Source of the DNA: Escherichia phage AV118 | Length of the DNA: 64,000 nt | Sequence record: OR352948.1 | Reading direction: 5' to 3' (one strand) | In this document: positions 11,265-42,943 of the stretch, in pieces | Layout: each line of letters begins with the position of its first letter | Position numbering within the stretch: position 1 is the stretch's first letter | Program-made: the position numbers and the translations under genes | The notes under the pieces: generated by a model | The model's input: the letters and a program-made list of their open reading frames with translations, nothing else | Database searches by the model: none | Told to the model about the DNA's origin: nothing

Positions 11265-11374
11265 ATTTGCCCTTAATTAACTAAGCATTGATAAGCACTA
11301 AACTATATTGCGAATAAAATTCTGGACCAAAACGAAAAATCATATCATTTATAGTATCCATAATGTAATTCAAT

Positions 11375-11845
11375 TTAATCATGTTTCCACACCCCATCGG
11401 TATTTGACCAAAGTCGCTGATTATCTGATCCTCGCCACAGCTTTTTAGTCGGAAGATTTTTCTCATACTTCCCATCAATAATAACATCAACATATTTAAG
11501 CATTTCTAGTTGTTTAATATCTTCAAAATTATATCCTGTCCACAACCAAATGCTTTTATTGGGATAAAGATTTTTAATAGTTTGAACCACAGAGTGAATC
11601 ACATCTCTGTTATCAGGATAGAGAGGGTCACCTCCGGTTATAGTCAATCCTTCTATATAATCATTATTCAAACATTCAATTAATTGTTCTAGTGTTTCAC
11701 CAGTGAATGGAATACCATTTCTAGCATTCCATGTTGATTTATTATAACACCCTTCGCATTTATGCAAACAACCCGTAACGAAAAGAACGACCCTGCAACC
11801 AGGGCCATTCACAAAATCGCAAGGATAAAATCTATCATAATTCAT
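11375..11845 (-). CDS. nrdG: Anaerobic ribonucleotide reductase activating protein NrdG (radical SAM)
   Basis: 156 aa with CxxxCxxC cluster (CLHKCEGC); same size as T4 NrdG. Confidence 0.9.
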   Translation of the reverse strand: MNYDRFYPCDFVNGPGCRVVLFVTGCLHKCEGCYNKSTWNARNGIPFTGETLEQLIECLNNDYIEGLTITGGDPLYPDNRDVIHSVVQTIKNLYPNKSIWLWTGYNFEDIKQLEMLKYVDVIIDGKYEKNLPTKKLWRGSDNQRLWSNTDGVWKHD

Positions 11846-15469: not shown

Positions 15470-15592
15470 GTCCCATCTCCATATCAATTAAGTCATTTAT
15501 CGTTGGTTCATTATACACCGTTTCTTCATCAGTGTAAACCGGTTCTTCCGGCTCTGGCTCTACAGTTTCCCATCTAGCCGCCCACCAAGGTT

Positions 15593-15913
15593 TTATAGCG
15601 TAATCCATTCTCTTACTGTCTGAGTTACTACACGTTCTCGAAGCTCAACCAGTTCAACGGTAGGAACTGCATAATACCAATCAGAATGGTAAGAACCTGA
15701 GCGAGATTCATTTACAGCCACATGTACATTATGTTTTGGACTAAAATAAACACACTGACGATATTGGCATTTACCATCTTGCACCCAGTCTTCTATTTCG
15801 ACAGGTTTAAGATAATCGGAAAAATCGAAATCATAGTTTTCTGAAAATGCATCATGGTCTTCAATGATTTCACTCAGAACTGCATCAACATCTAATTTAT
15901 TTTCAATAGTCAT
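15593..15913 (-). CDS. Hypothetical protein
   Basis: 106 aa acidic ORF. Confidence 0.45.
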   Translation of the reverse strand: MTIENKLDVDAVLSEIIEDHDAFSENYDFDFSDYLKPVEIEDWVQDGKCQYRQCVYFSPKHNVHVAVNESRSGSYHSDWYYAVPTVELVELRERVVTQTVREWITL

Positions 15914-15923
15914 TTTTCACCAA

Positions 15924-16133
15924 TTAATTTCGCAATTTATTAAGTTCTTCATAATCAATCCAGGATTCTAATCCTGATGGCAAATCAGATTCAATTTCCC
16001 AAAGAAGTTCTTCAATTTTATGAAGACGATCTAGTTCTTCAGCAGGAATAGTAACCATTGACGGAGCTTTTGCTACATTAATATCGTAAATCATATTTAC
16101 CCCAGTTTGACCATACAATCGCCGTATTTCCAC
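15924..16133 (-). CDS. Hypothetical protein
   Basis: 69 aa ORF. Confidence 0.4.
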   Translation of the reverse strand: MEIRRLYGQTGVNMIYDINVAKAPSMVTIPAEELDRLHKIEELLWEIESDLPSGLESWIDYEELNKLRN

Positions 16134-29482: not shown

Positions 29483-30018
29483 TGCATTCCAATCACAAAA
29501 AATTGAGGACGAGCATTACCGCCGATGCAATATTTGCTTTTGCAACAGTGTTGGACTGTTTTAATATGTACATTGTAAATCTTATCCATATCAGGAGCTT
29601 TAATAGGCTCGTCAATTATGTACAGAATACGAGAAAGCGTTAATCCACGGAATTTAGAACCTTCATTGCCAATAAAACTACGAACAGAATCAGTAAATAA
29701 ACGGAATCGAATATCGTCGCTAGAATAACGAGAAAATTCTTTTTTAATGTTGCCGGCAGAAATTTTAGCATAAGCTGAAGTATTAGAAAGAACAATAACT
29801 GTTCCACCATCATACAGCCAATTAACAGCAAAATTAGTTACTGCGGTCGATTTACCTGATTGTCTGCCGCCGTCTAAACGAAGTGTACAGTACTGCTTGA
29901 GTACGTCTTCAAATGGTGGGACATAACCGTTCTTACAAATTTCTTCTACTCTAGCATCAGAATGGTGTGTAAAAGCATTCATCAGGGATAGATAAGGACC
30001 AGTTAAAAATGTTCTCAT
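29479..30018 (-). CDS. P-loop protein
   Basis: Walker A GGRQSGKST. Confidence 0.5.
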   Translation of the reverse strand: MRTFLTGPYLSLMNAFTHHSDARVEEICKNGYVPPFEDVLKQYCTLRLDGGRQSGKSTAVTNFAVNWLYDGGTVIVLSNTSAYAKISAGNIKKEFSRYSSDDIRFRLFTDSVRSFIGNEGSKFRGLTLSRILYIIDEPIKAPDMDKIYNVHIKTVQHCCKSKYCIGGNARPQFFVIGMQ

Positions 30019-30080
30019 TTAGTTTCTCTTTTAGGTTGGGCCATTCCGTGGCGCATGAATTGTCCATTTCTGTATTTACC

Positions 30081-30129
30081 CCTCCAAGTAATTATGAATA
30101 TACTATCACAATTCTAGGAGAAAGTAAAC
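30081..30129 (-). promoter_or_regulatory. Promoter/stem-loop cassette (variant)
   Basis: cctccaag...tatactatcac...ctaggag...gtaaac. Confidence 0.35.
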
Positions 30130-30131
30130 TG

Positions 30132-30434
30132 TTATTTACCTTTAATTACTTTAGCTGCTTCGATAGCCGCTTGCTGAAGGTCATCCATAGACATACCAAA
30201 TTTAGAAGCAAAGTTATCAATTTTCTTTTCGACAGCATTCAAAGGCTTGGCCTGTTTACCTTCATTAGCGCCAGGAAGAGCGAGAATACGCTCTTTGTCA
30301 ATATAAAGGCTTACAAGTTTCTTACGGTCTTTATCGGACAAATCATGAAATGAATGGGCCTTTTTATTTATAGCGGCTTCTAATTTACCTGCACTCACTC
30401 GCGCTTCAGTAATAAATTCTTGATATGTTTTCAT
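30132..30434 (-). CDS. Internal-protein-like head protein with capsid-targeting N-terminus
   Basis: Starts MKTYQEFITE|A, matching the T4 IP capsid-targeting sequence with an (L/I)xE protease site. Confidence 0.6.
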   Translation of the reverse strand: MKTYQEFITEARVSAGKLEAAINKKAHSFHDLSDKDRKKLVSLYIDKERILALPGANEGKQAKPLNAVEKKIDNFASKFGMSMDDLQQAAIEAAKVIKGK

Positions 30435-30497
30435 TTTTGTTTCCTTGTTTGTTTTGATAGAGTAATTATACCATATTAATACTTAAGCGTAAACAAT

Positions 30498-30758
30498 TTA
30501 AGCTTTACCGCCAGAAATAATTCCGAAGTTGTTAAAATCGTATCCAATATCGTCAACATCTACTTTAGGACTTACTACAACATAAGCAATTTCACTACGT
30601 TTTGCATAGGTGTTGATTTCTTTACCATCGCCACCTAAGAAAGAATACCCATTACGTTTTAATGAGCCAAAGTCTTCGGCATCACCAATGAAAGCTTTAA
30701 CTTTAAATTTAGGACCTTTGGCATCTGCTTCAGCGATAAATTCTTGATACATTTTCAT
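30498..30758 (-). CDS. Internal-protein-like head protein with capsid-targeting N-terminus
   Basis: Starts MKMYQEFIAE|A. Confidence 0.6.
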   Translation of the reverse strand: MKMYQEFIAEADAKGPKFKVKAFIGDAEDFGSLKRNGYSFLGGDGKEINTYAKRSEIAYVVVSPKVDVDDIGYDFNNFGIISGGKA

Positions 30759-30764
30759 TTTTCC

Positions 30765-31178
30765 TTAGTAAATTGATTTACCATAGTATTTGTACCAAGT
30801 CGGACGTTGAGCAATTTTTTCATCTAAGCGTGCTTGACTTATCGCAATGGACGCTTCAGACGGGACGTAATTATTACGAAATTCTATAGGAATGTCGGAA
30901 ATATCCTGGACAGTCGTGTCCTTGATTTTGAAACCACGTTTCAAGCATTCAGCGATTAGTTCGATTTGACGTAAACGTAAAAATTCGAGTTTGTCGTAAA
31001 AGAATGTTACGTGACCTGTGCCTAAGATAAATGTTGGAGAGATTTTAAAATCCTTTACACGTTTACCGTTTTGAACATGTTTACGGACTGCACCAAATAC
31101 GCGTGGTAATTCACGATACTCAGCCATAAGATGTTGGTCGGTCAGTTCAGAAACAAGTGTTAAATTGATACGGGTCAT
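30765..31178 (-). CDS. denV: Endonuclease V (pyrimidine-dimer DNA glycosylase)
   Basis: From [12 protein letters not shown] it is 138 aa and near-identical to recalled T4 DenV. Confidence 0.9.
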
Positions 31179-31183
31179 AATTT

Positions 31184-31235
31184 CCTCCAAGTAGTTGATG
31201 AATGTATAGTATCAAAGTCCTTGGAGGAAGTAAAC
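31184..31235 (-). promoter_or_regulatory. Promoter/stem-loop cassette upstream of denV
   Basis: 8-bp inverted repeat cctccaag/cttggagg around gtatagtatc, with gtaaac at the end; the denV SD ggagg lies in one arm. Confidence 0.5.
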
Positions 31236-31236
31236 A

Positions 31237-31518
31237 CTATTTTTCTGAAGCGCCTGAAATATATTTTTCAAGACGTTGTTTCATTAGCGAGCCGTTCTTA
31301 GCGATTTCTTCCGGTTTATCGCACATACGTAACAAGGCTTCAAGCTTAGCGATATCGCTGGTACGTTCAAATTTGCGAGTATCTATCTTACTAGCAAGTT
31401 CAGAAATACGTGCTAATAGACTTTCAGCTTCAACCAAAGCTGCACCTAGCTTAGTTGCAAATGTGTCAGTAGCTTCATTAAGAATAGATTCTGATAAAAA
31501 TTCATTGTATGTTTTCAT
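31237..31518 (-). CDS. Internal-protein-like head protein (ipII/ipIII position)
   Basis: From the internal start [10 protein letters not shown]|S; lies between e and denV as ipII/ipIII do in T4. Confidence 0.55.
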
Positions 31519-32003
31519 ATATACGCTTTCCAAGTTCCTGTTTTAAATGTTGAGATTACGCGTTTCGCGCGATTAGGTGTCTGACGATACCATTTAGATT
31601 GGGCTAGATTTACTGCCGCTTCGTCCCAACGTTTCTGTTGAAGCATACGAAGAGAATTAGTAAAACCGGCGACGCCTGCTACACCCATTTGGAAGACCAT
31701 ATTGACCAATGCACATCGACGAACCGCATCTAAAGAATCATATACCGGTTTAAGTTTAGCATTACCCAAGATTCCGCGAACGGCTTTATCAACGTCTTCA
31801 TTAAATAGCTTTTCAGCCTCATCGAGGGTAATTGTACCGTTGCATTTACGTCCGATCATTCTGTCAAGTTCAGCTTTAGCTACGGCTAAAGACGGGTTCT
31901 TTGTTACTAAATGGCCTATGCCAATCGTCCAAAAGCCTTCAGTGTCTTTGTATAAAGTTAGTCTAAGACCTTCGTCATTACGAAGCATTTCAAATATATT
32001 CAT
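31515..32003 (-). CDS. e: Lysozyme (endolysin)
   Basis: From MNIFEML it is 162 aa with high identity to recalled T4 lysozyme (catalytic region EGLRLxxYKDTEGxxTIGIGH). Confidence 0.9.
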
Positions 32004-32030
32004 AATACCTCCCACGTTTATAGGAGGTAT
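32004..32030 (-). promoter_or_regulatory. SD-sequestering hairpin with embedded late-promoter-like box upstream of e
   Basis: Minus strand acctcc-TATAAACGTG-ggaggt, then att-ATG; the 3' arm is the SD; loop TATAAACG is one mismatch from TATAAATA. Confidence 0.45.
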
Positions 32031-32037
32031 TTATTAC

Positions 32038-32496
32038 TTATAGGAGGGTAGTGAGCACCTTATATAATGATTTGCCCATTACATATTCCCATTGAGAAGG
32101 TTTAATTAAAGCGAATGCATCAAATTCAGGAATCTGACGTCCGTCTGGGAATGTATGATAGGAATTACAAACACTGTTTCTGAATTGCTCGTGCTCTACA
32201 GGGATGGTATATAGGAACAGATGAATATTCTTATTATCTGAGTAATGATGTTCACCTAGGTCTTTCAGGAAGGCAGGGTCATATTGTGTAAACCCAGTTT
32301 CTTCTTCGCATTCACGAATAGCGGCTTCAATAGGAGATTCGCCAGGTTCGACATGGCCTTTAGGAATATCCCACCGATGAGCTAAAGAACCTTTAGGACG
32401 AGAACCAGTTACACGCCCCATGAATAATTCTTTATCTTCGGTAAGGAAAATAATACCGGCTGATAGTTCTTTCACTTTATTTTTCTTACTCATCAT
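32038..32496 (-). CDS. nudE: Nudix hydrolase NudE
   Basis: Nudix box GHVEPGESPIEAAIRECEEETG; position after e as in T4. Confidence 0.8.
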   Translation of the reverse strand: MMSKKNKVKELSAGIIFLTEDKELFMGRVTGSRPKGSLAHRWDIPKGHVEPGESPIEAAIRECEEETGFTQYDPAFLKDLGEHHYSDNKNIHLFLYTIPVEHEQFRNSVCNSYHTFPDGRQIPEFDAFALIKPSQWEYVMGKSLYKVLTTLL

Positions 32497-32737
32497 CTCG
32501 GTCCCATGATTTGGCCATTAATTCGGACATAAATTCTTCAATGCGCGTTTCTTTAGATGGACTTTCACTATTAGAGACCGCAAGTTTGTAATCTGCAATA
32601 GGACAGAACATATCAAGGTCCATATTAAGGTCGTCTTTGATTTTTTCTTCTGACACATCTTTATCGTATGTGTACAGATAACTATCACATGATTCTGATT
32701 TAATGTAAATTGCTATACTCATCTCAAATTCCTGCAT
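32486..32737 (-). CDS. Hypothetical acidic protein
   Basis: 83 aa ORF. Confidence 0.4.
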   Translation of the reverse strand: MQEFEMSIAIYIKSESCDSYLYTYDKDVSEEKIKDDLNMDLDMFCPIADYKLAVSNSESPSKETRIEEFMSELMAKSWDRDDE

Positions 32738-33198
32738 TCGGTAATAAAACGTTCAACTTCATTATTCTTGGCTTTTATCTTGTCTTTATGTTCTTGTAAA
32801 CTACTTTTAATAAGATTAATAATGATAGCGACAGTGCCGCCGCCAATGATGCCACCAATAATACTTACGATAGTAGATGCTAATAAGATAGCAATAATAT
32901 CAACAAAACCGAAAGAACTCACCTTAGTACTAAAAAACCATATAGACGGTACAAATATAATCCATCCTGTTATCCATTGGCACTTATTGAAAAACTTTTC
33001 AAGCTCAGCTTGAGTTGTTCGTATTACTTCATCGATAGGTTGATATCCGTTAATGTATCTGTTCACGATAATACCTGCTGACTGGTCGATTTTAAATTCT
33101 TGGCAAATATGTTTCACTAAGTATGATGGACATCCTGTCCAATCTACTGAATAGTATGAAATACCTTCATTGCCGTCGTCTATATTATTGTTAATCAT
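32719..33198 (-). CDS. Membrane protein
   Basis: Two long hydrophobic segments including a GGIIGGG-rich helix. Confidence 0.45.
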   Translation of the reverse strand: MINNNIDDGNEGISYYSVDWTGCPSYLVKHICQEFKIDQSAGIIVNRYINGYQPIDEVIRTTQAELEKFFNKCQWITGWIIFVPSIWFFSTKVSSFGFVDIIAILLASTIVSIIGGIIGGGTVAIIINLIKSSLQEHKDKIKAKNNEVERFITECRNLR

Positions 33199-33884
33199 TA
33201 CCAGCCTTCCATAGGGAATTCCAGATAAACTTGAGCATTGACACGAATTTCATTGGTAATCTTTTTAACTCGGTCTGTATTACGAGATACACGTCCGAAC
33301 CAACGCCATCCGTTACTAATTGCACGAGAACCAGTGTGCCATGTTTGCCAATCAAATTGAAGAAGAGTACGGTCTGGAGCTTCCCATTTCTCTAGTTCGC
33401 CTTTTTCGATTTTTTCGAGGACTTCTTTGTGCCACTGGCGATAGATAAGTTTGCCATCAGGAATCTGACTGAACTCTGCAGTTCCTGTTGCAAAATGAGT
33501 AGGACACACATCAGCGTTAACAAGACCAAGAATATGTTCAGACAAATAGCGAGGATTGTCATAGTCAGGTTGTCCTGCAGTAATAAAGTGTTGACCAACT
33601 GGAATATCAGGGCGTGGAACATCGTCATGGTGATATCCAGGAATAGCAGGGTACCAGCCAGGCATCAGCATGTGGACTCGTGAATCAAATACAACATCCG
33701 AGTCTTTCCAATCGTCAGGGAGATTTTGGATAAAGCTACGAGTAATTGGACCGCCATTATCAAAAGCAAAATTCAAATCGCAATTAAAGAACATAGGCTC
33801 GTTTTTAATCTGGCCATTTTTAATCGCATGAGCAAAACCACCTACTGCACGAGCTTGACTATTAAACACTTTAGAACTATTCAT
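33198..33884 (-). CDS. Hypothetical protein
   Basis: 228 aa, His/Asp/Trp-rich; no family assignable by eye. Confidence 0.45.
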   Translation of the reverse strand: MNSSKVFNSQARAVGGFAHAIKNGQIKNEPMFFNCDLNFAFDNGGPITRSFIQNLPDDWKDSDVVFDSRVHMLMPGWYPAIPGYHHDDVPRPDIPVGQHFITAGQPDYDNPRYLSEHILGLVNADVCPTHFATGTAEFSQIPDGKLIYRQWHKEVLEKIEKGELEKWEAPDRTLLQFDWQTWHTGSRAISNGWRWFGRVSRNTDRVKKITNEIRVNAQVYLEFPMEGW

Positions 33885-33885
33885 A

Positions 33886-34191
33886 TTATTTTCCTCGGCA
33901 TTCTTTAATGAAATTTTCTAGATTGGTAGATTCAATAGCTTTTTTACGAGCTTCTGCATGTTCTTCTTCGGACAATTTACATTTATAATTGACCCAGACA
34001 TTATGGTCGAAACTAGTCGTGGCATATAATAACAATGCTCCAACGAATAGCAAAAACGGTGATAAGAATACAAAACCAGGAACACCATCCATACTGTAAG
34101 CCTTTTGTAATACTGCAACAGAAAGAGCTGCGTAAAAAGGTGATGCAAATATTGTTAAAAGACCAATTCGGTTGGTTTCGCCTAATTTCAT
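33886..34191 (-). CDS. Membrane protein
   Basis: 101 aa with two hydrophobic helices; SD gaggag. Confidence 0.45.
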   Translation of the reverse strand: MKLGETNRIGLLTIFASPFYAALSVAVLQKAYSMDGVPGFVFLSPFLLFVGALLLYATTSFDHNVWVNYKCKLSEEEHAEARKKAIESTNLENFIKECRGK

Positions 34192-34204
34192 AATATTCTC
34201 CTCA

Positions 34205-34249
34205 TGTTTTAATAGGACTACTATAACATAATCCTATAATTATGTAAAC
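34205..34249 (-). promoter_or_regulatory. Promoter/stem-loop cassette
   Basis: aataggactactataacataatcctat...gtaaac. Confidence 0.4.
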
Positions 34250-34261
34250 AGTTTTGCGAAA

Positions 34262-35218
34262 TTATTTGAAAGGTTTTACCATATGAAAATTTTCTTTAAA
34301 CCGTTTGATGTAATCATTTTTGCCGAGCTTATGATACATAGCCACTACTTCATAATAGTTCTCGTATGCGTACTCACGGAACCAACCGGAGGTGATGCTT
34401 GTGCAGACTTTTTCTAATGCCATCATGAAACTGGCTTCAGGGTTAATTTTAAAGTCATTAGGAATTTGAGAACGTTCTAATGCTAGTACACATGATTCTT
34501 CATATACACCAGCCAGTTTAATCATTTCGGGTAACGATTCGAACTTCTCGCGTGAGGTCATGACTTCAGAACCGTCTTTCATATAAAATGTATACGCTGG
34601 ACGGTCTGTTAGTGCAATGGCTTCATGAATAGTATCATGGTCATATGTATAGATGTCATCTTTAAAGAACGCACTTTTAGAAGTGTCAAGAACTGGGTGA
34701 GCATAGTTCAAGGTTTCTTTCTGGCGTTTCAGCATAATTTCAGTAAGTTCATCGTTCAGTGTAACACCTTTACCACGAAGATACTGAATATGGTTCATAG
34801 TCTTTAAAAAGAATGGATTATTTTTCTTGAAACGATGAGACATCTTAATTGCAAGACCTATCTCAGGAGTTGCCCAGTAAAACCCGTTCAAACGGTCTTT
34901 AGTCAAATTTTTCTTGGCGTATTTTAAAAGGTCATAAGAAGACGTGAAATCTTCAGGAGTGAGTTCACCGACTAATTCACGGACATTAGTGATTGCCGGA
35001 ACAATATATGCTTCAAAATGAGTTTCGCGTCCATTATGGAAGCATTTGAAAACTTGGACATCAGGGTTATCTTGGTGAACATATACACCCATCATTTGAT
35101 TTTTGAATGCATTCCAAGAACCTTGGTCCGCAATAAAGTCCCAATCACTATTTTTGATAGCGCTAGAATCAATAAGACCGTGATAGTGAAGTGCACGAGA
35201 ACCAATAACTAACATCAT
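34262..35218 (-). CDS. Hypothetical protein, possible nucleotidyltransferase-like N-terminus
   Basis: GSRALHYHG...SDWDF loosely fits a GS...DxD signature; weak. Confidence 0.4.
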   Translation of the reverse strand: MMLVIGSRALHYHGLIDSSAIKNSDWDFIADQGSWNAFKNQMMGVYVHQDNPDVQVFKCFHNGRETHFEAYIVPAITNVRELVGELTPEDFTSSYDLLKYAKKNLTKDRLNGFYWATPEIGLAIKMSHRFKKNNPFFLKTMNHIQYLRGKGVTLNDELTEIMLKRQKETLNYAHPVLDTSKSAFFKDDIYTYDHDTIHEAIALTDRPAYTFYMKDGSEVMTSREKFESLPEMIKLAGVYEESCVLALERSQIPNDFKINPEASFMMALEKVCTSITSGWFREYAYENYYEVVAMYHKLGKNDYIKRFKENFHMVKPFK

Positions 35219-35243
35219 AATAATTTCCTCGAATTTAGATTAC

Positions 35244-35483
35244 TTAAATTTCGCGACATGCGATATCATATTCATCCCAGAGGTCATCATGTGAAGCCTC
35301 TACCAATGGAACGATTGTACCGTTTATGTCTTCATTATAAGGGCAAATTGTACAGTGCGCATCTTCGAATCGGATGCCTTTGTGTTCAGATTTTTTATAA
35401 CGCATATCGAATATCTTTGCAAACTTTTCACGAGTAATGGTTTTAGCAACCACTTTGGTTCCAATACTTTCATAATAAATCAT
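35244..35483 (-). CDS. Hypothetical protein
   Basis: Start MIYYESIG with SD ggag. Confidence 0.4.
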   Translation of the reverse strand: MIYYESIGTKVVAKTITREKFAKIFDMRYKKSEHKGIRFEDAHCTICPYNEDINGTIVPLVEASHDDLWDEYDIACREI

Positions 35484-35494
35484 CGTGGACTCCA

Positions 35495-35541
35495 TTTAAT
35501 TTGATAGGACTACTATAACATAGCCCTATCTTGTTGTAAAC
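35495..35541 (-). promoter_or_regulatory. Promoter/stem-loop cassette
   Basis: ttgataggactactataacatagccctatc...gtaaac. Confidence 0.4.
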
Positions 35542-35545
35542 TGTT

Positions 35546-35743
35546 TTAGCAAGAATAACTAGATGATACCCAGCCTTGAACAGTGATACTATTGTGGGAT
35601 AATGAGATCGCGTCCTGGAGATTCAGACCTGCGTTATCTTCAATCCATAATGTAACTTCTTCGCGTTCTTCTGTTGCAATTTGGAACAGGTTTTCCAGGG
35701 CAGCTACTGCCGTACGTACAGCACAATCTAATTCACGAGACAT
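35546..35743 (-). CDS. Small protein, paralog 1 of 3 (C-terminal GWVSSSxxC family)
   Basis: 65 aa ending ...TVQGWVSSSYSC. Confidence 0.5.
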   Translation of the reverse strand: MSRELDCAVRTAVAALENLFQIATEEREEVTLWIEDNAGLNLQDAISLSHNSITVQGWVSSSYSC

Positions 35744-35752
35744 ATCGTTTCC

Positions 35753-36025
35753 TTAGCAAGTGTGAGAAGATGCGACCCAACCACCAGTTTCGAGGCTCAG
35801 GTTGTAGTCGTATTGGTAAACGTCAGCCCATTCAGCATAGCCGTTTTTTGTACAACGTTCAAGATCGGCTTTAAGATGTCCGGGTGAATGATAGGTTCCA
35901 CCCATACCATAAGCTGGGTACAAGTCGAATGTTGTGTTTTGTTTATCAGCAATTTCTTTGGCAGCCTCAATAGCTGCATAGATTTTTGCTACAGCTTCAG
36001 CCAGTTCGGTTTGTTCTTTAGACAT
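35753..36025 (-). CDS. Small protein, paralog 2 of 3 (C-terminal GWVSSSxxC family)
   Basis: 90 aa ending ...LETGGWVASSHTC; junction to the next gene is tgcTAAGGAAnnnnnATG. Confidence 0.5.
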   Translation of the reverse strand: MSKEQTELAEAVAKIYAAIEAAKEIADKQNTTFDLYPAYGMGGTYHSPGHLKADLERCTKNGYAEWADVYQYDYNLSLETGGWVASSHTC

Positions 36026-36034
36026 AATGATTCC

Positions 36035-36340
36035 TTAGCACAACGCAGAAGACGAAACCCAAGCACCTTCAGTAATAACGTAACCATTACCTTCACGCTT
36101 AACATCGCCACCGTTATTTTCAATTTCATTTTTCATCCACTGGGATACGATTTCACCCTTAGGATAATAAGTACGACCGCTACCATAATCACCTACAGAA
36201 AATGATACGGCATATTGGTCTGCGATCTTTGTTGCTTCTTCTTCGATACGTTCAGATTGATTCAGAAGTTTATAAATTGCATCTGAAGCAGATTTGGCAT
36301 CATTAAACTCTGGTACTTTAATTTCAATAATCTTACTCAT
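36035..36340 (-). CDS. Small protein, paralog 3 of 3 (C-terminal GWVSSSxxC family)
   Basis: 101 aa ending ...ITEGAWVSSSALC. Confidence 0.5.
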   Translation of the reverse strand: MSKIIEIKVPEFNDAKSASDAIYKLLNQSERIEEEATKIADQYAVSFSVGDYGSGRTYYPKGEIVSQWMKNEIENNGGDVKREGNGYVITEGAWVSSSALC

Positions 36341-36696
36341 TTTCTACATTCCTTAATAAAGTTTTCGATTGTTTCATTTTCACGTCTAGCTAGGAGTTCA
36401 TTATAACTAATCATTTGAGAAGCGTAAATCTTTTTATTTTTCTTGTTATGGTAAATAAAGTCATAGTAAAAATAGACTACAGTACAAAATGATGCGATGG
36501 ATGCAAAGGCTTGGGTATACCGTAAGTCCTGCCATTGGTCTGTGAATCCGCCAGTGTTCCCTATAAATCCTAACACAACGCCGTCAATAAGAAATCCAAC
36601 TAATCCAAAGGCAAATCCCATGCCAATACTCATAATAAAAATTAGAATGTTCTCACCAAGAGAAGGCCATACGGTTAAGAGTTGAGGCTTTTGCAT
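36337..36696 (-). CDS. Membrane protein
   Basis: 119 aa with hydrophobic helices; SD aaggaaa. Confidence 0.45.
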   Translation of the reverse strand: MQKPQLLTVWPSLGENILIFIMSIGMGFAFGLVGFLIDGVVLGFIGNTGGFTDQWQDLRYTQAFASIASFCTVVYFYYDFIYHNKKNKKIYASQMISYNELLARRENETIENFIKECRK

Positions 36697-37037
36697 CTTA
36701 TTTCCTTAACGAATTCCATAGCTTCTTCATATTCATACTTTTTAACAACTTCATCATACTGAGCTTGGGCTTTTGCGCACTGAACTTTCCATTCACGAAC
36801 TCGAGCTCTGTGATGACGGCCTTGGTACCAATATCCCACTCAGTTAATAGGCATTAATAAAAATGGCACAATAAACGACCCGGCTATAATAAGTAAAAAC
36901 ACTGCATCAGACGATATAACTTTATTGGAATCTAAAATAGCTCCTATAATCATAAAGATTAAAAATGCTAAAGCTAAAATAGGGCCAAATAATACTTCGT
37001 TTGGGATTAATTTACGTTTGTATTCGTATGCCCAGGC

Positions 37038-37639
37038 TTAATTGGCATGTACAGGGTTGGCTTTGACATATTCTCTACATTCCATAATAAATTGCTCAAG
37101 GATTAAATTGTTAGTGAAATTAGGACTAACAACCATAGTTTCATAAAGCGCATCAATAGCACTTAAAGCATCAACTCTTTTAAGCAAAGGCTTGCCTTCA
37201 TACATAGTTTCAGAATCGACGATTAAAGTGAAGTAGTATTTTTTATTATCGACTAGAACTTCTGTATCGATATAAAACATATTAGACCTCAGAAGCTTAT
37301 CTCTAAAACCATAATAATCTTTAGAGCGTTCGCTGATATATTCCCATTCAGTGTTTAAACAACAAACAGACCATGTAGGAGCAACGAAATCGGTGAATCT
37401 AATATCATGGTCTGCAACTAGTTTAGCAATAGCTCCGATATCATGAATCATAATACCTGGGGCTAATAAAGATTTTCTGCTATGGCTAGCCGTTTTCTCA
37501 GTAGTCTCATAAGAAGACGACCAGTACCATTTACGTCCAGTTGCAACATATCGTAATGAATCAACTAAAGACGTAGGTGGATTTACCTTATCTCGGAACT
37601 CTTCGAACATTGAGTCAATATCATTATTTTGGTTTCGCA
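37038..37639 (-). CDS. Hypothetical protein
   Basis: About 200 aa from MRNQNN with SD aaggag; no recognisable motif. Confidence 0.45.
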
Positions 37640-37661
37640 TGTTAACTCCTTTATTATCCAA

Positions 37662-37688
37662 AAGGAGGACCGGAGTCCTCCGTATTAT
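37662..37688 (-). terminator. Rho-independent terminator
   Basis: Minus-strand hairpin ggaggac-uccg-guccucc followed by UUUU, directly after the stop at 37690. Confidence 0.45.
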
Positions 37689-37689
37689 T

Positions 37690-38283
37690 TTATTTCAAAG
37701 AGTTAATATATTCTTGTACATCAGCAGAAGTGGTTTCGACACCAGCTGGAGTGCCATTGAACGTTTCAACACGAGTCAGAGTGTCTTCGATATCAACCTT
37801 AGTCAGTGCAGCGATTTCAATTACATCATCGGCCGTAGAGATACCAAGGGCATTAGCTGCTCGAGTTTCACGAATGTATTCGAGTTTGATTGCCAGATTC
37901 TGACGAGCATCATCAAGTTCAACCACCTTACGAGCAATTTCAATTCGCATAGCGGCATACCCGTCAGCTTTTGTATTAAGTTGTTCGGCAGTTCGACGAT
38001 ACAGAAGACCAAGCTTAGCATGCATGGTAACATCTTGTCCTTCAGCCAAGAGCTTACGAATTTCACGTTCCTTAGAAGCGGCTTGCTTGTTCTTTTCATT
38101 AACAAGTTCGCGAATACGTTTTTCTTCATTAATAGATTTAACAGAAGCCGTTTTTAGTTCTTTGATTTGGGTAATCAACTTATCTGCAGCTGCGTTATAC
38201 TGTTCTTCGACAGTCAGATTTTTAGCCATAGCAGTACCCAGTTTAGTGCGGATGAATTCAACAAGTTTTTTCAGTGTGTTCAT
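37690..38283 (-). CDS. Coiled-coil protein of unknown function
   Basis: About 197 aa from MNTLKKL; heptad-rich central region; driven by the second copy of the 48-bp promoter repeat. Confidence 0.5.
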
Positions 38284-38306
38284 ATTATTACCTTTCAATT
38301 GGTGGT

Positions 38307-38354
38307 TTATTATCCAATGAGAGCATTATACTCTGCTCTCAAGAGTTTGTAAAT
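38307..38354 (-). promoter_or_regulatory. Strong early-type promoter, copy 2 of the 48-bp perfect repeat
   Basis: Identical 48-mer to 9635-9682 (TTTACA, 17 nt, TATAAT on the minus strand). Confidence 0.6.
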
Positions 38355-38581
38355 TATTTTTTAATCAAATTGACATAAAACTCGGCGTCTTCCGGGTGCA
38401 TGCCTTCACAGTATTCTTCAACCATGAACTTCTTAACGGCTTCATAAGGACCACTCAGATTAAGCTCAGTTGTCCAGAACTTGGAATCTTGGACTGAATC
38501 GATACGAACTTCAGGGTGACGGTTGCGAATAACTTCTTCAGTGTATTCATAATCAACGACATCAATACTAACTGTAGCCAT
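38354..38581 (-). CDS. Hypothetical acidic protein
   Basis: 75 aa ORF; SD gaggag. Confidence 0.45.
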   Translation of the reverse strand: MATVSIDVVDYEYTEEVIRNRHPEVRIDSVQDSKFWTTELNLSGPYEAVKKFMVEEYCEGMHPEDAEFYVNLIKK

Positions 38582-38588
38582 TTTGTTT

Positions 38589-38640
38589 CTCCTCTGTAGT
38601 TGATAAGTCTATAGTATCATAGACCATAGTTGTTGTACAT
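38589..38640 (-). promoter_or_regulatory. Promoter/stem-loop cassette (variant)
   Basis: ctcctctgtagttgataagtctatagtatcatagac...tgtaca. Confidence 0.35.
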
Positions 38641-38648
38641 CATTATTT

Positions 38649-38954
38649 TTAATTTTTCCAACTTAACAACTTGTAGTGTCCTTCATTAATACGTGGTTTA
38701 TCCCAAGAAATACTAATATATGATTCACTGTCAATAGAAGTCGTTTGGTTTTTCTCTACCGTAAGACCTTCACTTTCCAGCCATTCAATAGTATTTGCGC
38801 ATAAATCAGAAGAACACCTCATTGGAAACCGGCAAGATTTTTCACCTTTAGCTGCAGTGTTATACATCTTTTCTAAAATACGCTTTTGCACGTTTTTAAA
38901 AATAGTTTCAGCAGATTCTTCAGATTTTTTATTCAGTTCAGTGTAAAGACTCAT
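38649..38954 (-). CDS. Hypothetical protein
   Basis: 101 aa ORF; SD gaggaaa. Confidence 0.45.
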   Translation of the reverse strand: MSLYTELNKKSEESAETIFKNVQKRILEKMYNTAAKGEKSCRFPMRCSSDLCANTIEWLESEGLTVEKNQTTSIDSESYISISWDKPRINEGHYKLLSWKN

Positions 38955-38962
38955 AACATTTT

Positions 38963-39011
38963 CCTCTATGGTTGATAAGTCTATAGTATCATGTCCTTAG
39001 AAGAAGTAAAC
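38963..39011 (-). promoter_or_regulatory. Promoter/stem-loop cassette (variant)
   Basis: cctctatggttgataagtctatagtatcat...gtaaac. Confidence 0.4.
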
Positions 39012-39044
39012 ATCTTTATGAAATATTTTTATGCCCTAGATACC

Positions 39045-39071
39045 AAAAGGCCCCAACCATAAGGAAGGGGC
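39045..39071 (-). terminator. Rho-independent terminator
   Basis: Minus-strand gcccc-loop-ggggcc followed by UUUU, downstream of the ORF ending at 39078. Confidence 0.45.
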
Positions 39072-39077
39072 ATTCTA

Positions 39078-39542
39078 TTATTTAATTTGTTTAGCAGACC
39101 AGATACGGTCTTTAATAAGTTTTTGGATATCTTCAACATACTCAAGGCTATGAGCGTGAGGATTATCTTTGAAGCTATGTGCTCGTGCCAGTTTCTGTCC
39201 TTCTGTTTTGATTACTAAAAGCTCTTTAAGAATTGCTTCATACTTAGAAATAATTCCTTTGGCGATATTTTTTTCTTGAGCTGCTTTAGGGTCCACTTTT
39301 GGCGCAGGTGCTTTACCTGTAGCTTTCTGGAACAATTCACCTGATGCAGCTAGGCTTTTAAAAACTCGGCTAACAGTATTAGCATTAGTAAAACCTTCGG
39401 CTTTAAAATCTCTAATAAAACGGAAACGTTCTTCATCAGAGGCGTCTTTGTAAGAATATTTACCTGCTTGAATTGCTGCAATCGCAGCGGCTTTTACATC
39501 TGAACTAGATTGTTCAGTCAAAAATTCAGCGTATGATTTCAT
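39078..39542 (-). CDS. Internal-protein-like head protein (divergent capsid-targeting N-terminus)
   Basis: Starts MKSYAEFLTE|Q, the same pattern as the other IP-like genes; Ala/Lys-rich, 154 aa. Confidence 0.45.
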   Translation of the reverse strand: MKSYAEFLTEQSSSDVKAAAIAAIQAGKYSYKDASDEERFRFIRDFKAEGFTNANTVSRVFKSLAASGELFQKATGKAPAPKVDPKAAQEKNIAKGIISKYEAILKELLVIKTEGQKLARAHSFKDNPHAHSLEYVEDIQKLIKDRIWSAKQIK

Positions 39543-39587
39543 GTTGCTTTTCCTAAGTTAATTAACTTATCTATTTATTATTATGCC

Positions 39588-39615
39588 AAAAAGCCCCGAC
39601 CTTTCGGAAGGGGCT
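39588..39615 (-). terminator. Rho-independent terminator (repeat of 24464-24491)
   Basis: Same agcccc...ggggcu hairpin plus U-run on the minus strand. Confidence 0.55.
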
Positions 39616-39926
39616 AAGCCTTGCGGCAACCTTGTCGGGGTTCCACCTGCTAAGGCAAGTGTTTGTACGAAACGCCGGGATTCGAACCCGGTTATTAAGC
39701 AGTTGACGCTACTCAATATTTTTAAAAGGCCATATCTCGACCATATCCGAACGTTCCGTCAAAAACGCTACTCGGCTTACGGCAAAGATATTTCCTCGAA
39801 TCGATAATTCGGTGCGCCGTTTCTGCTGTGATATAAGGGGGCATTAACAAAACATAAAGATTTATTAATGCCAGTCCTTACTCAGGGAACATCAGTCCGA
39901 CGACTTACCGGTAGCGACCCGGCTTC

Positions 39927-40271
39927 TTATTTTGACATATCATCAATTTGCTCTCGACGCCGACGCCATAGATTAATCGCTTCATAAACACATTCTGCGT
40001 TTGGTATATGACGGCAATAATATAATGATTCGCGTTTCTGGAATCGATGTTGCAATTGGATTTCGTTTAAAAGGTCTTTACGGTCAAAGTATTCAAAACT
40101 AGTTAACCTGGAACGGTTTTTAATGAACTTCCAATGACCAAATTCATTTTGAACATAGATGTAATCTGCATGTTGGTATAACAAATTAATCAATCGGTCT
40201 GAAATAACTGTATCATGTTCGTTAAAATAAAACGTTAAATCATGAACTACTAAGTAAACATTACCTTTCAT
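39927..40271 (-). CDS. Hypothetical protein
   Basis: Start MKGNVYLVV with SD gaggaaa immediately downstream of tRNA-Arg. Confidence 0.4.
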   Translation of the reverse strand: MKGNVYLVVHDLTFYFNEHDTVISDRLINLLYQHADYIYVQNEFGHWKFIKNRSRLTSFEYFDRKDLLNEIQLQHRFQKRESLYYCRHIPNAECVYEAINLWRRRREQIDDMSK

Positions 40272-40289
40272 ATTTTCCTCACTTAAAAT

Positions 40290-40366
<77 letters not shown>

Positions 40367-40466
40367 ATGATGCGGCTTTGGGTGTTTCAGTGTTACTCGT
40401 TTGTAGGTTCTACTTTTAACCCTTATTCGAACAACTTACCTACCTAAGAGCGTACTCACCGCGAAT

Positions 40467-40541
40467 TGGTGGCCCTGGCTGGTTTCGATCCAGCTACCTA
40501 TCAGTTATGAGCTGACAGCTCTCCCATTGAGCTACAGGGCC
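40467..40541 (-). tRNA. tRNA with CAT anticodon (Ile-lysidine or Met)
   Basis: Hand-folded cloverleaf: acceptor ggccctg/cagggcc, D-arm gctc-aatggga-gagc, anticodon stem gtcag/ctgat with loop ctCATaa, T-arm gctgg-atcgaaa-ccagc, encoded CCA. Confidence 0.7.
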
Positions 40542-40637
40542 TAAATAACTTTCTATTATGAAAGGCACTTGAGGGAGCACCTTTGGTAATAGAGGGTAGA
40601 TTAATAATAACACATAATTCTTAAAGCAAATTACGTT

Positions 40638-40928
40638 TTACCGTACCATATTAATGTAGTTATATTCAATGCAACGTAATTTCAAAGGGTTCTTGAAAAT
40701 ATCATATTCAAGAGGGCCTTTTTCTGTTTCAATAAAGAAATCAAAGTTAACTGTGTTAAATTTAACGTCTTCACAGAGTAATTTAACTTGTGAAGATGAA
40801 CGGTCGATATAAACCTTTTCAACCTCAAAGATAGTCAGAATACCGTAGTCATTAACCAGTGCTTTAGCTGCACGTTGGTCGCTTTCATATCCGTTCTCAA
40901 TGGACGATACTTTAGCATAAAGAATCAT
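40638..40928 (-). CDS. Hypothetical protein
   Basis: 96 aa ORF. Confidence 0.45.
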   Translation of the reverse strand: MILYAKVSSIENGYESDQRAAKALVNDYGILTIFEVEKVYIDRSSSQVKLLCEDVKFNTVNFDFFIETEKGPLEYDIFKNPLKLRCIEYNYINMVR

Positions 40929-41287
40929 GAATGTTCCACCATTTCAAAGGTATGAGCATCAACAATATGATACCAGTCAAAATTTTCTTCCGCGTTTTTA
41001 TAAATTTCGCGAAGAGCTTCAACAGTTTTTCCTGTAGCAACAAGATCGTCAATACCACCAAGAGGATAACAGTAATAACCAGCAAACAGAAGGAAATTAA
41101 TAGTTTCTGTAGGTTCTGGATGCAGAACACCGTTATCATCTACCACTTCAAAGAAAGTGTAAGAAGGAGTACAAGTTTTAATCCAAGCCCATGCTTGGGC
41201 TGCTGAATCAAATGGACTGCGTATCAAACGACAATCAGGGTCTTTAGAAGGATTTGCTTCAAAATCCGCATATACGTGATATTTCAT
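40925..41287 (-). CDS. Hypothetical protein
   Basis: Start MKYHVYADF with SD aaggtga. Confidence 0.45.
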   Translation of the reverse strand: MKYHVYADFEANPSKDPDCRLIRSPFDSAAQAWAWIKTCTPSYTFFEVVDDNGVLHPEPTETINFLLFAGYYCYPLGGIDDLVATGKTVEALREIYKNAEENFDWYHIVDAHTFEMVEHS

Positions 41288-41288
41288 T

Positions 41289-41474
41289 TTACTCACCTTT
41301 TGCAATTTTATCCATAACGATAGCGATTAAGCCGATTAGAAATGCTACTACCAATGAGATAGAATTTTCTGTTGTTGTCAGTAGTCCACAAATGAATCCT
41401 ACAAACATCGAAAAACTAAAAGCCATTGAAGCAATTACTACAGCAACATTACGAATCAGTTCAGCGCGTTTCAT
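41289..41474 (-). CDS. Small membrane protein
   Basis: Single hydrophobic helix; SD ggag. Confidence 0.4.
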   Translation of the reverse strand: MKRAELIRNVAVVIASMAFSFSMFVGFICGLLTTTENSISLVVAFLIGLIAIVMDKIAKGE

Positions 41475-41495
41475 TTTATTTCTCCATTTACTCAT

Positions 41496-41541
41496 TTGTT
41501 TTGATAGGACTACTATAACATATCCCTATAGGCTTGTATAC
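41496..41541 (-). promoter_or_regulatory. Promoter/stem-loop cassette
   Basis: ttgttttgataggactactataacatatccctat... Confidence 0.4.
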
Positions 41542-41543
41542 CT

Positions 41544-41807
41544 TTATTTCAAATATATTGCGTATTTTTTATAGCCACCAGGCTCGTGTCGAAGACCTTT
41601 ATCATTCGCAAAACGTTGAATGTTATTGAACTGATTTTCATCAAGTTCGGATGTGTCAAATACGAAAAAGTTTCGTTTGTTACCAAGCGTGATATGCGGA
41701 GTTAAGTCAATGTTATACAAATTAAGAATATCAGCAATAACCTGATTGACCGCTTTGTTAATTTTCACACCAGATGATTCTGAGATGAATTCGTTGAAAG
41801 TTTTCAT
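41544..41807 (-). CDS. Internal-protein-like head protein with capsid-targeting N-terminus
   Basis: From the internal start MKTFNEFISE|S. Confidence 0.55.
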   Translation of the reverse strand: MKTFNEFISESSGVKINKAVNQVIADILNLYNIDLTPHITLGNKRNFFVFDTSELDENQFNNIQRFANDKGLRHEPGGYKKYAIYLK

Positions 41808-41823
41808 TTTAGGTTCCATTTGG

Positions 41824-41869
41824 TTGTTTTGATAGGACTACTATAACATAGTCCTATCGTGTTGTAAAT
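41824..41869 (-). promoter_or_regulatory. Promoter/stem-loop cassette
   Basis: gataggacta-ctataaca-tagtcctatc, a 10-bp inverted repeat. Confidence 0.45.
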
Positions 41870-42180
41870 TATTTTATGCCTTTAGAAGAAATGGTATTTT
41901 GGCGTTTGACCCCTGTTTGTGAAAAATCGTGGTTATCGATTTGGTCGACTCGCATAACACCAAATGCAGATTTAATTTTAGCCTTTGAACCTTTTTTAAT
42001 ACTAATTACCATATAAGTATCATTTTTCTTATATTCGAAATTTGTTACTTCAACGCCTTGATTAGAAATTGACTTAATAATAGCATTAGCGTATTCATCA
42101 TCTAACGGACCGGTGGTGTTAATAATAAAATTTTTATCGGCTTTAGTAGCTTCAGCGATAAACTCTTGATAAGTTTTCAT
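41869..42180 (-). CDS. Internal-protein-like head protein at the ipI locus
   Basis: Starts MKTYQEFIAE|A; immediately upstream of 57B, as ipI is in T4. Confidence 0.6.
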   Translation of the reverse strand: MKTYQEFIAEATKADKNFIINTTGPLDDEYANAIIKSISNQGVEVTNFEYKKNDTYMVISIKKGSKAKIKSAFGVMRVDQIDNHDFSQTGVKRQNTISSKGIK

Positions 42181-42195
42181 TTTATTTCCTTGAGG

Positions 42196-42244
42196 TTGTT
42201 TATTTGATAGGATGATAGTAACACACCATCATCCTTATGTAAAC
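42196..42244 (-). promoter_or_regulatory. Promoter/stem-loop cassette
   Basis: gataggatgat-agtaacacacc-atcatcc...gtaaac. Confidence 0.4.
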
Positions 42245-42257
42245 TGTTTTGTGAAAA

Positions 42258-42943
<686 letters not shown>

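Follow-up and report, generated by a model that had tools for sequence, protein, structure and literature searches.

Six T4-type internal protein genes with capsid-targeting leaders in the Mosigvirus phage AV118

INTRODUCTION

Relatives of the T-even phages reportedly hold at least 10 types of internal protein (Ip) with only the capsid-targeting sequence (CTS) in common, as far as papers citing Repoila's 1994 study relay it.

The best-described members of the family are the three Ips of T4. Mutagenesis of IPIII assigned targeting to positions 4 and 7 and processing to positions 8 and 10 (reviewed in PMC9026906), and a 10-residue CTS suffices to package foreign proteins in T4 (PMC9026906; PMC7697877). 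Ip1, Ip2, and Ip3 each block their own GmrSD type IV restriction enzyme, Ip2 being the inhibitor of GmrSD-ECOR21 (PMC12373910), and IPIII stripped of its CTS still works in the cytoplasm (PMC9391042). BrxU, an enzyme of the GmrSD family, cuts Mosigvirus DNA (PMC13390438). When Silas et al. screened ip4 to ip10 against 15 GmrSD groups, no reproducible new inhibition emerged (PMC12373910). T4 IPIII mutants show a reduced burst and slower head assembly, and Ip lysines touch DNA phosphates (PMC9026906; PMC3012670). Proteins that are loaded into the head in advance and reach the host together with the DNA are likewise found in P22 (gp7, gp16, and gp20), T7 (core), SPN3US/phiKZ (inner body), and N4 (vRNAP), and in phiKZ-like phages a gp21-related protease likewise cuts after Glu. 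These ejection proteins, however, are mostly DNA conduits or enzyme carriers and have neither a sequence relationship to the Ips of AV118 nor an MKTYxEF(I/L)xE leader.

Here, we analyze a 64-kb stretch ("the window") of Escherichia phage AV118 (OR352948.1), a Mosigvirus (RB69-like) whose window shares 97% nucleotide identity with phage mogra over the region. The six leader-bearing genes found in it belong to the known, highly variable T4-type Ip family and are ordinary for a Mosigvirus, save the one at 39078–39542; their interpretation is essentially textbook already (Repoila 1994; Rao & Black 2010; Silas 2025).

RESULTS

Six ORFs open with a capsid-targeting leader

The six minus-strand leader ORFs listed in a preliminary description of this DNA are all present: within the 64-kb window, the leader MK[TMS][YF]xEF[IL]xE opens six ORFs and no others, each encoded on the minus strand (30132–30434, 30498–30758, 31237–31518, 39078–39542, 41544–41807, and 41869–42180). 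In the six-frame translation of the window, the motif MK-x-[YF]-x-E-F-[ILVM]-x-E also occurs six times, each time heading an ORF, and a degenerate DNA version of the leader was found six times versus an expectation of 0.00 from 100 dinucleotide-preserving shuffles. Two of the mechanically longest ORFs (31237–31533 and 41544–41819) begin a few codons 5′ of the MK(T)(Y/F) ATG, the start that annotated relatives use for 31237–31518 and 41544–41807.

Over residues 1 to 10, the leaders have a mean pairwise identity of 7.0/10. The targeting positions (Y/F4 and F7) and, at the level of the motif, the processing positions (I/L8 and E10) are occupied as in T4-type CTSs in all six proteins, and five of the six genes fall into PHROG families named internal head or internal virion protein, the exception being 39078–39542. 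The earlier reading of these N-termini as T4-type CTSs thus holds. The conserved leader residues are encoded by synonymous codons (TAT/TAC for Y4, GAA/GAG for E6, TTT/TTC for F7, ATT/ATC for I8), which argues that the similarity is kept at the protein level, beyond copied DNA. Once the first 10 residues are removed, no pair of the six bodies reaches a BLASTP E value of <0.01, in keeping with the divergence described before, and the sole profile-level tie among them joins 30498–30758 and 41869–42180 via phrog_2667. Judged by dN/dS, which lies between 0.08 and 0.31 in the five computable pairs (dS is saturated for Ip9), the six genes are evidently under purifying selection.

In their leaders, their neighborhoods, and their upstream layout of early promoter and stem-loop, the genes are like those of the T4 Ips, and the proteins are likewise small and mostly basic. 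Five of them sit at vs.8-denV-e or trna.4-57B, which are polymorphic ip loci, and 39078–39542 occupies a third site. The AV118 set differs from that of T4 in that no IPI or IPIII homolog was found anywhere in the window and in that, by BLASTP, five of the six bodies resemble no T4 Ip, the exception being a direct ortholog of ipII. A tblastn match to the IPIII N-terminus at ~6.1 kb was rejected, as it is weak and internal to a large ORF rather than a CTS gene. Structure prediction for the bodies, which had been proposed as a check, yielded folds that gave no functional clue, and no solved structures were found for sequence relatives of IPII, Ip7, Ip9, or the protein at 39078–39542.

Members of named Ip families

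The ipII ortholog at 30132–30434 (minus strand; 100 amino acids [aa]; CTS MKTYQEFITE; mature form ~90 aa, pI 9.7) shares 93% amino acid and 95.7% nucleotide identity with T4 ipII (dN/dS 0.29) and matches phrog_7857, "internal virion protein," with an E value of 4.5e-55. Since the flanking core genes are 66 to 79% identical to T4 at the nucleotide level, against 95.7% for ipII, the sequences indicate a recent lateral exchange of this gene. Next to it, starting 6 nt past the end of the denV ORF, lies a distant Ip7-family paralog (30498–30758, minus strand; 86 aa; CTS MKMYQEFIAE; mature pI 6.4), the equivalent of RB69ORF125c and mogra_155, which matches phrog_2667, "internal head protein" (E 4e-21), and is 75% identical to VR25 gp125 (dN/dS 0.20). 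The equivalent gene is annotated as "hypothetical" with a truncated start in mogra and as "internal head protein" in the RefSeq entry of RB69.

The Ip5-family gene at 31237–31518 (minus strand; 93 aa), the equivalent of RB69ORF127c, overlaps with its ATG the stop codon of the lysozyme gene e (ATGA). It belongs to phrog_3499 (E 2e-46) and is 89% identical to VR25 ip5, annotated as "similar to T6 Ip5" (dN/dS 0.10). Regarding the cut site, the preliminary description had placed (L/I)xE at residues 8 to 10 throughout; this stands for all six proteins as a motif, but 31237–31518 has LNE at residues 13 to 15 in addition to LSE at 8 to 10, and it is LNE that Ip5 homologs conserve, even where the site at 8 to 10 is lost. 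Because LNE rather than LSE is kept, this protein is probably cleaved after E15. In RB69ORF127c, the leader has decayed (MKTYMNFYQN...) and the downstream LNE site is still present.

Two further genes adjoin each other at the other polymorphic locus. The Ip9-family gene (41544–41807, minus strand; 87 aa; CTS MKTFNEFISE; mature pI 9.0) matches phrog_7673, "internal head protein" (E 5e-49), is annotated as Ip9 in mogra (mogra_129), and is 74% identical to VR25 ip9. The Ip7-family gene (41869–42180, minus strand; 103 aa; CTS MKTYQEFIAE; mature pI 9.5) occupies the classical ipI locus adjoining 57B, and its product ends in a Lys/Arg-rich disordered tail.

Across the set, the mature forms divide into four that are strongly basic (pI 9.0 to 9.7) and two that are near neutral (pI 6.3 to 6.4), the latter unlike the classical basic Ips. 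The basic majority and the tail of Ip7, together with the head assembly defect of T4 IPIII mutants, the lysine-phosphate contacts, and the lack of reproducible GmrSD inhibition by Ip4 to Ip10, would suit proteins that are packaged for mainly structural or physical reasons, such as DNA charge neutralization, condensation, ejection, or core assembly, and that have no specific defense target. We consider this unlikely, since a generic counter-ion leaves the extreme divergence of the bodies, their presence or absence among near-identical phages, and the transfer of ipII unexplained, and since two of the six proteins are not basic and all three properly tested T4 Ips have specific targets. Structural and anti-defense roles of Ips can coexist.

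Promoters, PeSL elements, and the ipIII junction

Three elements of the PeSL (promoter-early stem-loop) type, members of one 65-nt repeat family (D1), lie on the minus strand 5′ of Ip7 (42196–42244; early promoter TTTACA-N17-TACTAT and stem-loop), between Ip7 and Ip9 (41824–41868; TTTACA-N17-TATAGT and stem-loop), and 3′ of Ip9 (41496–41540), flanking both genes on both sides. These repeats are like the PeSL cassettes, mobile regulatory units, of other T4-like phages (Arbiol 2010; Comeau 2014, PMC4122927), their hexamers are close to TTTACW-N17-TAYWAT, the consensus published for T4/PST (PMC4122927), and T4 ipI, ipII, and ipIII have the same upstream layout as the element at 42196–42244. A further early-type promoter (30465–30494, minus strand; GTTTAC-N17-TATAAT) lies 5′ of ipII and precedes ipIII in mogra. 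Early-type promoters are found at three of the six genes, as for the T4 ip genes. A generic sigma-70 scan returned 55 sites versus 46 ± 8 in shuffled sequence, with no excess, so that we base our promoter calls on conservation of the PeSL repeats and on T4 having the identical layout. Directly 5′ of the six genes, we found no perfect late promoter (TATAAATA), and we assume that they are expressed during prohead assembly; a time-resolved omics paper on T4 does not mention ip genes.

The gene ipIII is present in mogra, AV109, and PhAPEC2 and absent from AV118. In the alignment, the junction of this indel falls inside ATGAAAAC of CTS codons; by this evidence, AV118 has lost ipIII via a junction within the leader. 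Unlike PeSL exchange, this junction lies outside any PeSL, which fits the older idea of Repoila of shuffling within the IP palette. It also marks the leader DNA as recombinogenic, and together with the missing perfect late promoters and the eroded leader of RB69ORF127c it could suggest that, in some of the six, the leader is a recombination scar, spread through exchange of cassettes at CTS codons and PeSLs onto early cytoplasmic proteins of which no meaningful amounts are packaged. Candidates would be 30498–30758, which shares a transcript with denV, and those genes that have early promoters. Several observations make this very improbable. The targeting and processing residues are found in all six proteins despite synonymous codon differences and are kept in homologs whose bodies are just 45 to 75% identical, the proven T4 Ips share the early-promoter/PeSL layout, in T4 any protein bearing the leader gets packaged (PMC7697877), and RB69ORF127c still has its downstream LNE site.

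A widespread CTS-bearing protein outside the named families

The gene at 39078–39542 (minus strand) encodes a protein of 154 aa (CTS MKSYAEFLTE; mature form 144 aa, pI 9.6) at the third locus, 3′ of the tRNA genes, where T4 has e.8 and where relatives carry another CTS gene (RB69ORF149c/PhAPEC2 gp133). It matched no named Ip family and falls into phrog_2280, "unknown function." With the CTS removed, its body matches 510 phage records, and all 25 of these that were sampled, as well as ~90 cluster members, are labeled "hypothetical" or "uncharacterized." Compared with the Tequatrovirus ortholog, dN/dS is 0.08, and distant homologs retain a CTS-like N-terminus despite divergent bodies, which suggests that the CTS is under selection. 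A 3,202-aa mucin-like repeat protein (P0023) that surfaced as an HMM homolog, with 14 weak repeats, was dismissed as spurious by composition and repeat structure. The AlphaFold2 model predicts two entirely helical domains with no match to a known fold. On the 5′ side, a terminator hairpin is followed by the late-promoter-like sequence TAATAAATA (39572..39613, minus strand), which agrees with the T4 late promoter TATAAATA at 7 of 8 positions; the promoter is perfect at the equivalent position of the Tequatrovirus ortholog (G4507). A second hairpin (39045–39071) lies on the 3′ side.

Because this family is wide (Mosigvirus, Tequatrovirus, and relatives) with all sampled entries "hypothetical," and because a canonical CTS is combined here with its own terminator-bounded cassette of the late-promoter type and an unmatched fold, it is tempting to speculate that the protein founds an unrecognized class of injected internal proteins, aimed at a host defense newly linked to Ips. 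We offer this as a tentative reading whose chances are somewhat short of even. What goes beyond the textbook picture is only that a common CTS-bearing family escapes current annotation.

The repertoire compared with relatives

We counted ip genes per genome in the syntenic regions of nine annotated phages, the degenerate CTS DNA pattern being too loose for IMG/VR. The set had been called expanded, which is true relative to T4 and T2 (three ip genes each, against six in AV118) but not relative to closer phages: the same syntenic region holds seven CTS genes in mogra, AV109, and RB69, five in PhAPEC2, and eight in VR25, placing AV118 within the range of five to eight found in Mosigvirus and Gaprivervirus, with ipIII lost and one gene simply the IPII ortholog. 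AV118 shares its polymorphic loci with Ip4-Ip13-type proteins (Ip5, Ip6, Ip7, Ip9, and Ip10 of VR7/VR25; RB69ORF125c/127c/156); the VR25 genes are 45 to 89% identical in amino acids to the Ip5, Ip7, and Ip9 homologs of AV118, and the Ip7 paralog is also present. The combination differs from that of these carriers, with ipII present, ipI and ipIII absent, and no gene of the RB69ORF123c/124c/149c type. Nor do more Ip species support the larger payload that had been proposed: the scaffolding core is the route by which Ips get into the head, so that a payload of six species is more plausibly one of greater diversity than one of greater size. In the searchable literature, we found no virion proteomics for the six proteins or their Mosigvirus orthologs, and searches for Ip7, Ip8, Ip9, and Ip10 by name matched only unrelated papers.

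DISCUSSION

As a whole, the six T4-type Ip genes are very probably best explained as a repertoire of counter-defense cassettes, for whose products we infer packaging, cleavage, and injection. The N-terminal CTS of ~10 to 15 residues would bind the gp22-based scaffolding core, building each protein into the prohead, where the gp21 prohead protease would cut past (I/L)-x-E, at E10 in five proteins and probably at E15 in the Ip5 homolog, and release a mature protein of 8 to 16 kDa inside the head. The gp21 of mogra, the closest relative, is 88% identical to that of T4 and the block gp20-67-68-21-22-23 is conserved, AV118's own copies lying beyond the 64-kb window. At the next infection, the mature proteins would exit the head with the DNA and serve as pre-made first-response counter-defense factors. 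The cassettes would be shuffled among T4-like phages by recombination, for which both the PeSL promoter/stem-loops and the codons of the common CTS would serve as sites.

The anti-defense role, raised as a candidate in the preliminary description, is by analogy the accepted one, with T4 Ip1, Ip2, and Ip3 each blocking a different GmrSD (PMC12373910). The likeliest targets would be modification-dependent type IV enzymes of the GmrSD family directed against the arabinosylated cytosines in Mosigvirus DNA. Orthology to a proven GmrSD inhibitor is found only in 30132–30434 (T4 Ip2), whose likeliest target class, judging by sequence, is that of Ip2, namely, GmrSD of the ECOR21/BrxU type; the other five bodies are dissimilar to Ip1 to Ip3. 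For Ip5, Ip7, and Ip9, GmrSD inhibition is a conjecture that may be wrong, since no reproducible hit came out of the screen of ip4 to ip10 against 15 GmrSD groups. Both that screen and the unrelated bodies, as well as the two-domain helical model of the 154-aa protein with no known fold, would also agree with injected effectors that mostly act on other immediate-early barriers, for instance BREX, retrons, abortive-infection sensors, RecBCD-like nucleases, or superinfecting phages. We regard this as rather unlikely, if less so than a mainly structural role, since all three characterized Ips act on GmrSD and since GmrSD enzymes are extremely diverse, the 15 representatives having been tried on glucosyl-hmC phages, not on arabinosylated Mosigvirus DNA.

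Modification-dependent restriction enzymes form a very diverse family, and each Ip disarms a single variant of it, so that the Ip repertoire would help to decide which wild strains of E. coli and Shigella a T4-like phage infects. The AV118 set, consisting of IPII, Ip5, two versions of Ip7, Ip9, and one unnamed protein, with neither IPI nor IPIII, thereby sets testable limits to the host range, with predicted sensitivity to GmrSD enzymes of the CT596 and ECOR17 types. Predictions of this kind may be useful in selecting therapeutic phages.

Six leader-bearing genes in a T4-type gene order

The region 30000-42300 matched 958 phage records in a database search, the top match being Escherichia phage mogra (Mosigvirus, RB69 group; 96.9% identity, 100% query coverage), and it keeps the T4 gene order: vs.8, internal protein (ip) genes, denV, e, nudE, e.2-e.8, tRNAs, trna.2-4, ip genes, 57B, 57A, gene 1 and gene 3. 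Where T4 has eight tRNA genes the window has only two, Arg-TCT and Met-CAT (40290-40366 and 40467-40541); tRNA content varies among relatives, with three annotated in PhAPEC2 and Asn plus Met in AV109. Between 32719 and 37661, five minus-strand ORFs resembling T4 e.2-e.5 (32719-33198, 33886-34191, 36337-36696, 37038-37661 and, more weakly, 36675-36839) have in common the C-terminal motif E-(N/R/Q)-F-I-(K/T/M)-E-C-R, also seen as a DNA repeat; the first and third are annotated as membrane proteins in relatives. Three small paralogs in tandem on the minus strand at 35546-36340 (65, 90 and 101 aa), similar to RB69ORF136c/137c/139c, share the C-terminal sequence G-x-W-V-x-S-S-x-x-C.

The preliminary description had named six ORFs with T4-type N-terminal capsid-targeting sequences (CTS) and divergent bodies, and both the ORFs, at their coordinates, and this architecture held up. 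In a six-frame scan of the window, MK-x-[YF]-x-E-F-[ILVM]-x-E was found exactly six times, each at a minus-strand ORF start, and its degenerate DNA form gave six matches against 0.00 expected from shuffled sequence. The six leaders agree at a mean of 7.0 of 10 residues, while no pair of leader-stripped bodies matches at BLASTP E<0.01. Synonymous codons differ between the genes at conserved leader residues, so that it is the protein sequence that is conserved, and dN/dS against orthologs in other genera (0.08-0.31 in the five genes where it was computable; dS is saturated in Ip9) indicates that these are real genes. All six carry Y/F4, F7, I/L8 and E10; in T4 IPIII, mutagenesis showed that positions 4 and 7 of the leader control targeting and positions 8 and 10 control processing (PMC9026906), and foreign proteins are packaged when they carry just this 10-residue leader (PMC9026906; PMC7697877). 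The predicted mature proteins are of 8-16 kDa, four of them basic (pI 9.0-9.7) and two near-neutral. The prohead protease gp21 of mogra is 88% identical to that of T4 and lies inside a conserved gp20-67-68-21-22-23 block; the AV118 protease gene falls outside the window. We consider it very probable that all six are genuine packaged internal proteins (Ips).

Five of the six can be assigned to named families. The product of 30132-30434 is the IPII ortholog (93% amino acid identity to T4), that of 30498-30758 is a distant Ip7 paralog (RB69ORF125c; phrog_2667, E 4e-21), and those of 41544-41807 and 41869-42180 are Ip9 and Ip7, respectively, by family match and the annotation of relatives. Ip5 is represented by a homolog at 31237-31518 that shares 89% identity with VR25 ip5, a gene whose annotation notes similarity to T6 Ip5. 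Since LNE at its residues 13-15 is kept in relatives and the site at 8-10 is not (LTV in VR25, YQN in RB69), cleavage probably follows E15; a leader of this length would be comparable to that of IPI, which has 19 residues. The sixth gene, 39078-39542, encodes a 154-aa protein of phrog_2280 (“unknown function”).

Expression signals

None of the six genes has a perfect T4 late promoter, TATAAATA, directly upstream. IPII, Ip9 and Ip7 are instead preceded by early-type promoters and stem-loops, and because T4 ipI, ipII and ipIII share this layout, it is no argument against membership of the Ip family. The start of 30498-30758 lies 6 nt past the end of the denV ORF, and the ATG of the Ip5 homolog overlaps the e stop codon. 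The expression timing of the six genes is accordingly putative. A 65-nt promoter/stem-loop repeat, resembling the PeSL (promoter-early stem-loop) elements described for T4-like phages (PMC4122927), occurs in five copies (34201-34265, 35493-35557, 41493-41557, 41821-41885 and 42196-42260) and brackets Ip9 and Ip7 singly. Other copies precede two further small-gene cassettes. A perfect TATAAATA motif occurs inside the ipII coding sequence (30365-30372, minus strand), directed toward vs.8.

Repertoire size and exchange of ip genes

The set had been called expanded, which is true relative to T4 and T2, with three genes each, but not relative to other related phages, which carry 5-8 CTS-type ORFs; neither an unusual set nor, as an inference from its size, a larger payload is borne out. 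Counted over the vs.8-to-gene-1 region of each relative, there are seven such ORFs in mogra, in AV109 and in RB69 (one RB69 leader being decayed), five in PhAPEC2 and eight in VR25, several with variant leaders; PG7 has at least one in a compared region that stops short of the 57B locus.

Homologs of IPIII and IPI were found nowhere in the window. ipIII is present in mogra, AV109 and PhAPEC2 and precisely missing from AV118: in an alignment of window 30380-30520 with positions 1880-2640 of the mogra sequence compared, the window tracks the mogra ipIII upstream region as far as ATGAAAAC and then mogra ipII, placing the ipIII indel junction inside the shared leader codons. PhAPEC2 has ipIII without ipII, mogra has both, and AV118 has ipII only. 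At the nucleotide level ipII is 95.7% identical to T4 ipII, as against 66-79% for denV, e, nudE, 57B and gene 1, a disparity that suggests recent lateral movement of the ip gene; mogra ipIII is 90% identical to T4 ipIII. Judging from these sequence comparisons, an ip cassette may recently have been transferred between Tequatrovirus and Mosigvirus.

An uncharacterized family at the third ip locus

The family of the 154-aa protein, at the ip locus downstream of the tRNA genes, is the sole item that goes beyond current annotation. Its leader-less body matched 510 phage records, 469 of them over at least 80% of its length, and the family is “hypothetical” or “uncharacterized” in 25 of 25 sampled records and in all of the approximately 90 named members examined in three protein clusters. 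Just 11 relatives emerged when 1.84 billion representatives were searched exhaustively with a profile. The distant ones lie in T4-like genomic contexts and retain CTS-like starts (MLKFNEFLAE, MLEYSEFLKE, MKFKEFLIE and MISFNEFVDGNLITE) ahead of divergent bodies. The AV118 gene is flanked by two hairpins and preceded by TAATAAATA, a 7/8 match to the late promoter; in the Tequatrovirus ortholog the match at this position is perfect (TATAAATA). Adjoining the ortholog in PhAPEC2 and RB69 (11162-11725 and 15551-15991, respectively, of the sequences compared) is an extra CTS gene that starts MKTYAEFLTEAAKLPSE, encodes 146-187 aa, is annotated as hypothetical and is preceded by TAATAAATA; this extra gene is absent from the AV118 window, and the third ip locus is therefore itself polymorphic.

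Structure prediction, proposed as a way to examine the bodies, produced folds for the 154-aa protein and Ip7 but no functional clue from either. In the AF2 model of the former (mean pLDDT 69.7), a Pro/Lys/Ala linker joins a helical N-domain (residues 11-72, pLDDT 77-89) to a long helical hairpin; Foldseek gave no PDB match below E 0.1. The Ip7 model (mean pLDDT 74, core ~90) consists of a beta-alpha-beta-beta-alpha-beta domain of ferredoxin-like fold and a basic, disordered tail; its matches are limited to the generic superfold, and in BFVD the sole match is another Ip7. No solved structure related by sequence to IPII, Ip7, Ip9 or the 154-aa protein was found.

Probable roles

The identity and probable role that the preliminary description gave these genes match the accepted view in the literature, and its interpretation is accordingly no discovery. 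According to Silas et al. 2025 (PMC12373910), who cite Repoila 1994, at least 10 Ips, recognised by their signal sequence, occur in related phages. The same study shows that T4 Ip1, Ip2 and Ip3 each inhibit their own distinct GmrSD type IV restriction enzyme, and in its tests ip4-10 gave no reproducible new match against 15 GmrSD groups. IPIII is required on ECOR17 and is active without its CTS if supplied in the cell (Srikant et al. 2022, PMC9391042). Mosigvirus DNA contains arabinosylated cytosines and is cut by BrxU, a GmrSD-family enzyme (PMC13390438).

For the IPII ortholog, a GmrSD-type enzyme would be the most plausible target; for the other five proteins, GmrSD specifically seems a rather doubtful one. 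An anti-defence role of whatever kind is, protein by protein, slightly favored. In the proposed sequence of events, the CTS would direct each Ip into the scaffolding core, where cleavage by gp21 would release the mature protein into the head; the mature Ips would then be co-injected and may inhibit the first-line defences of the host.
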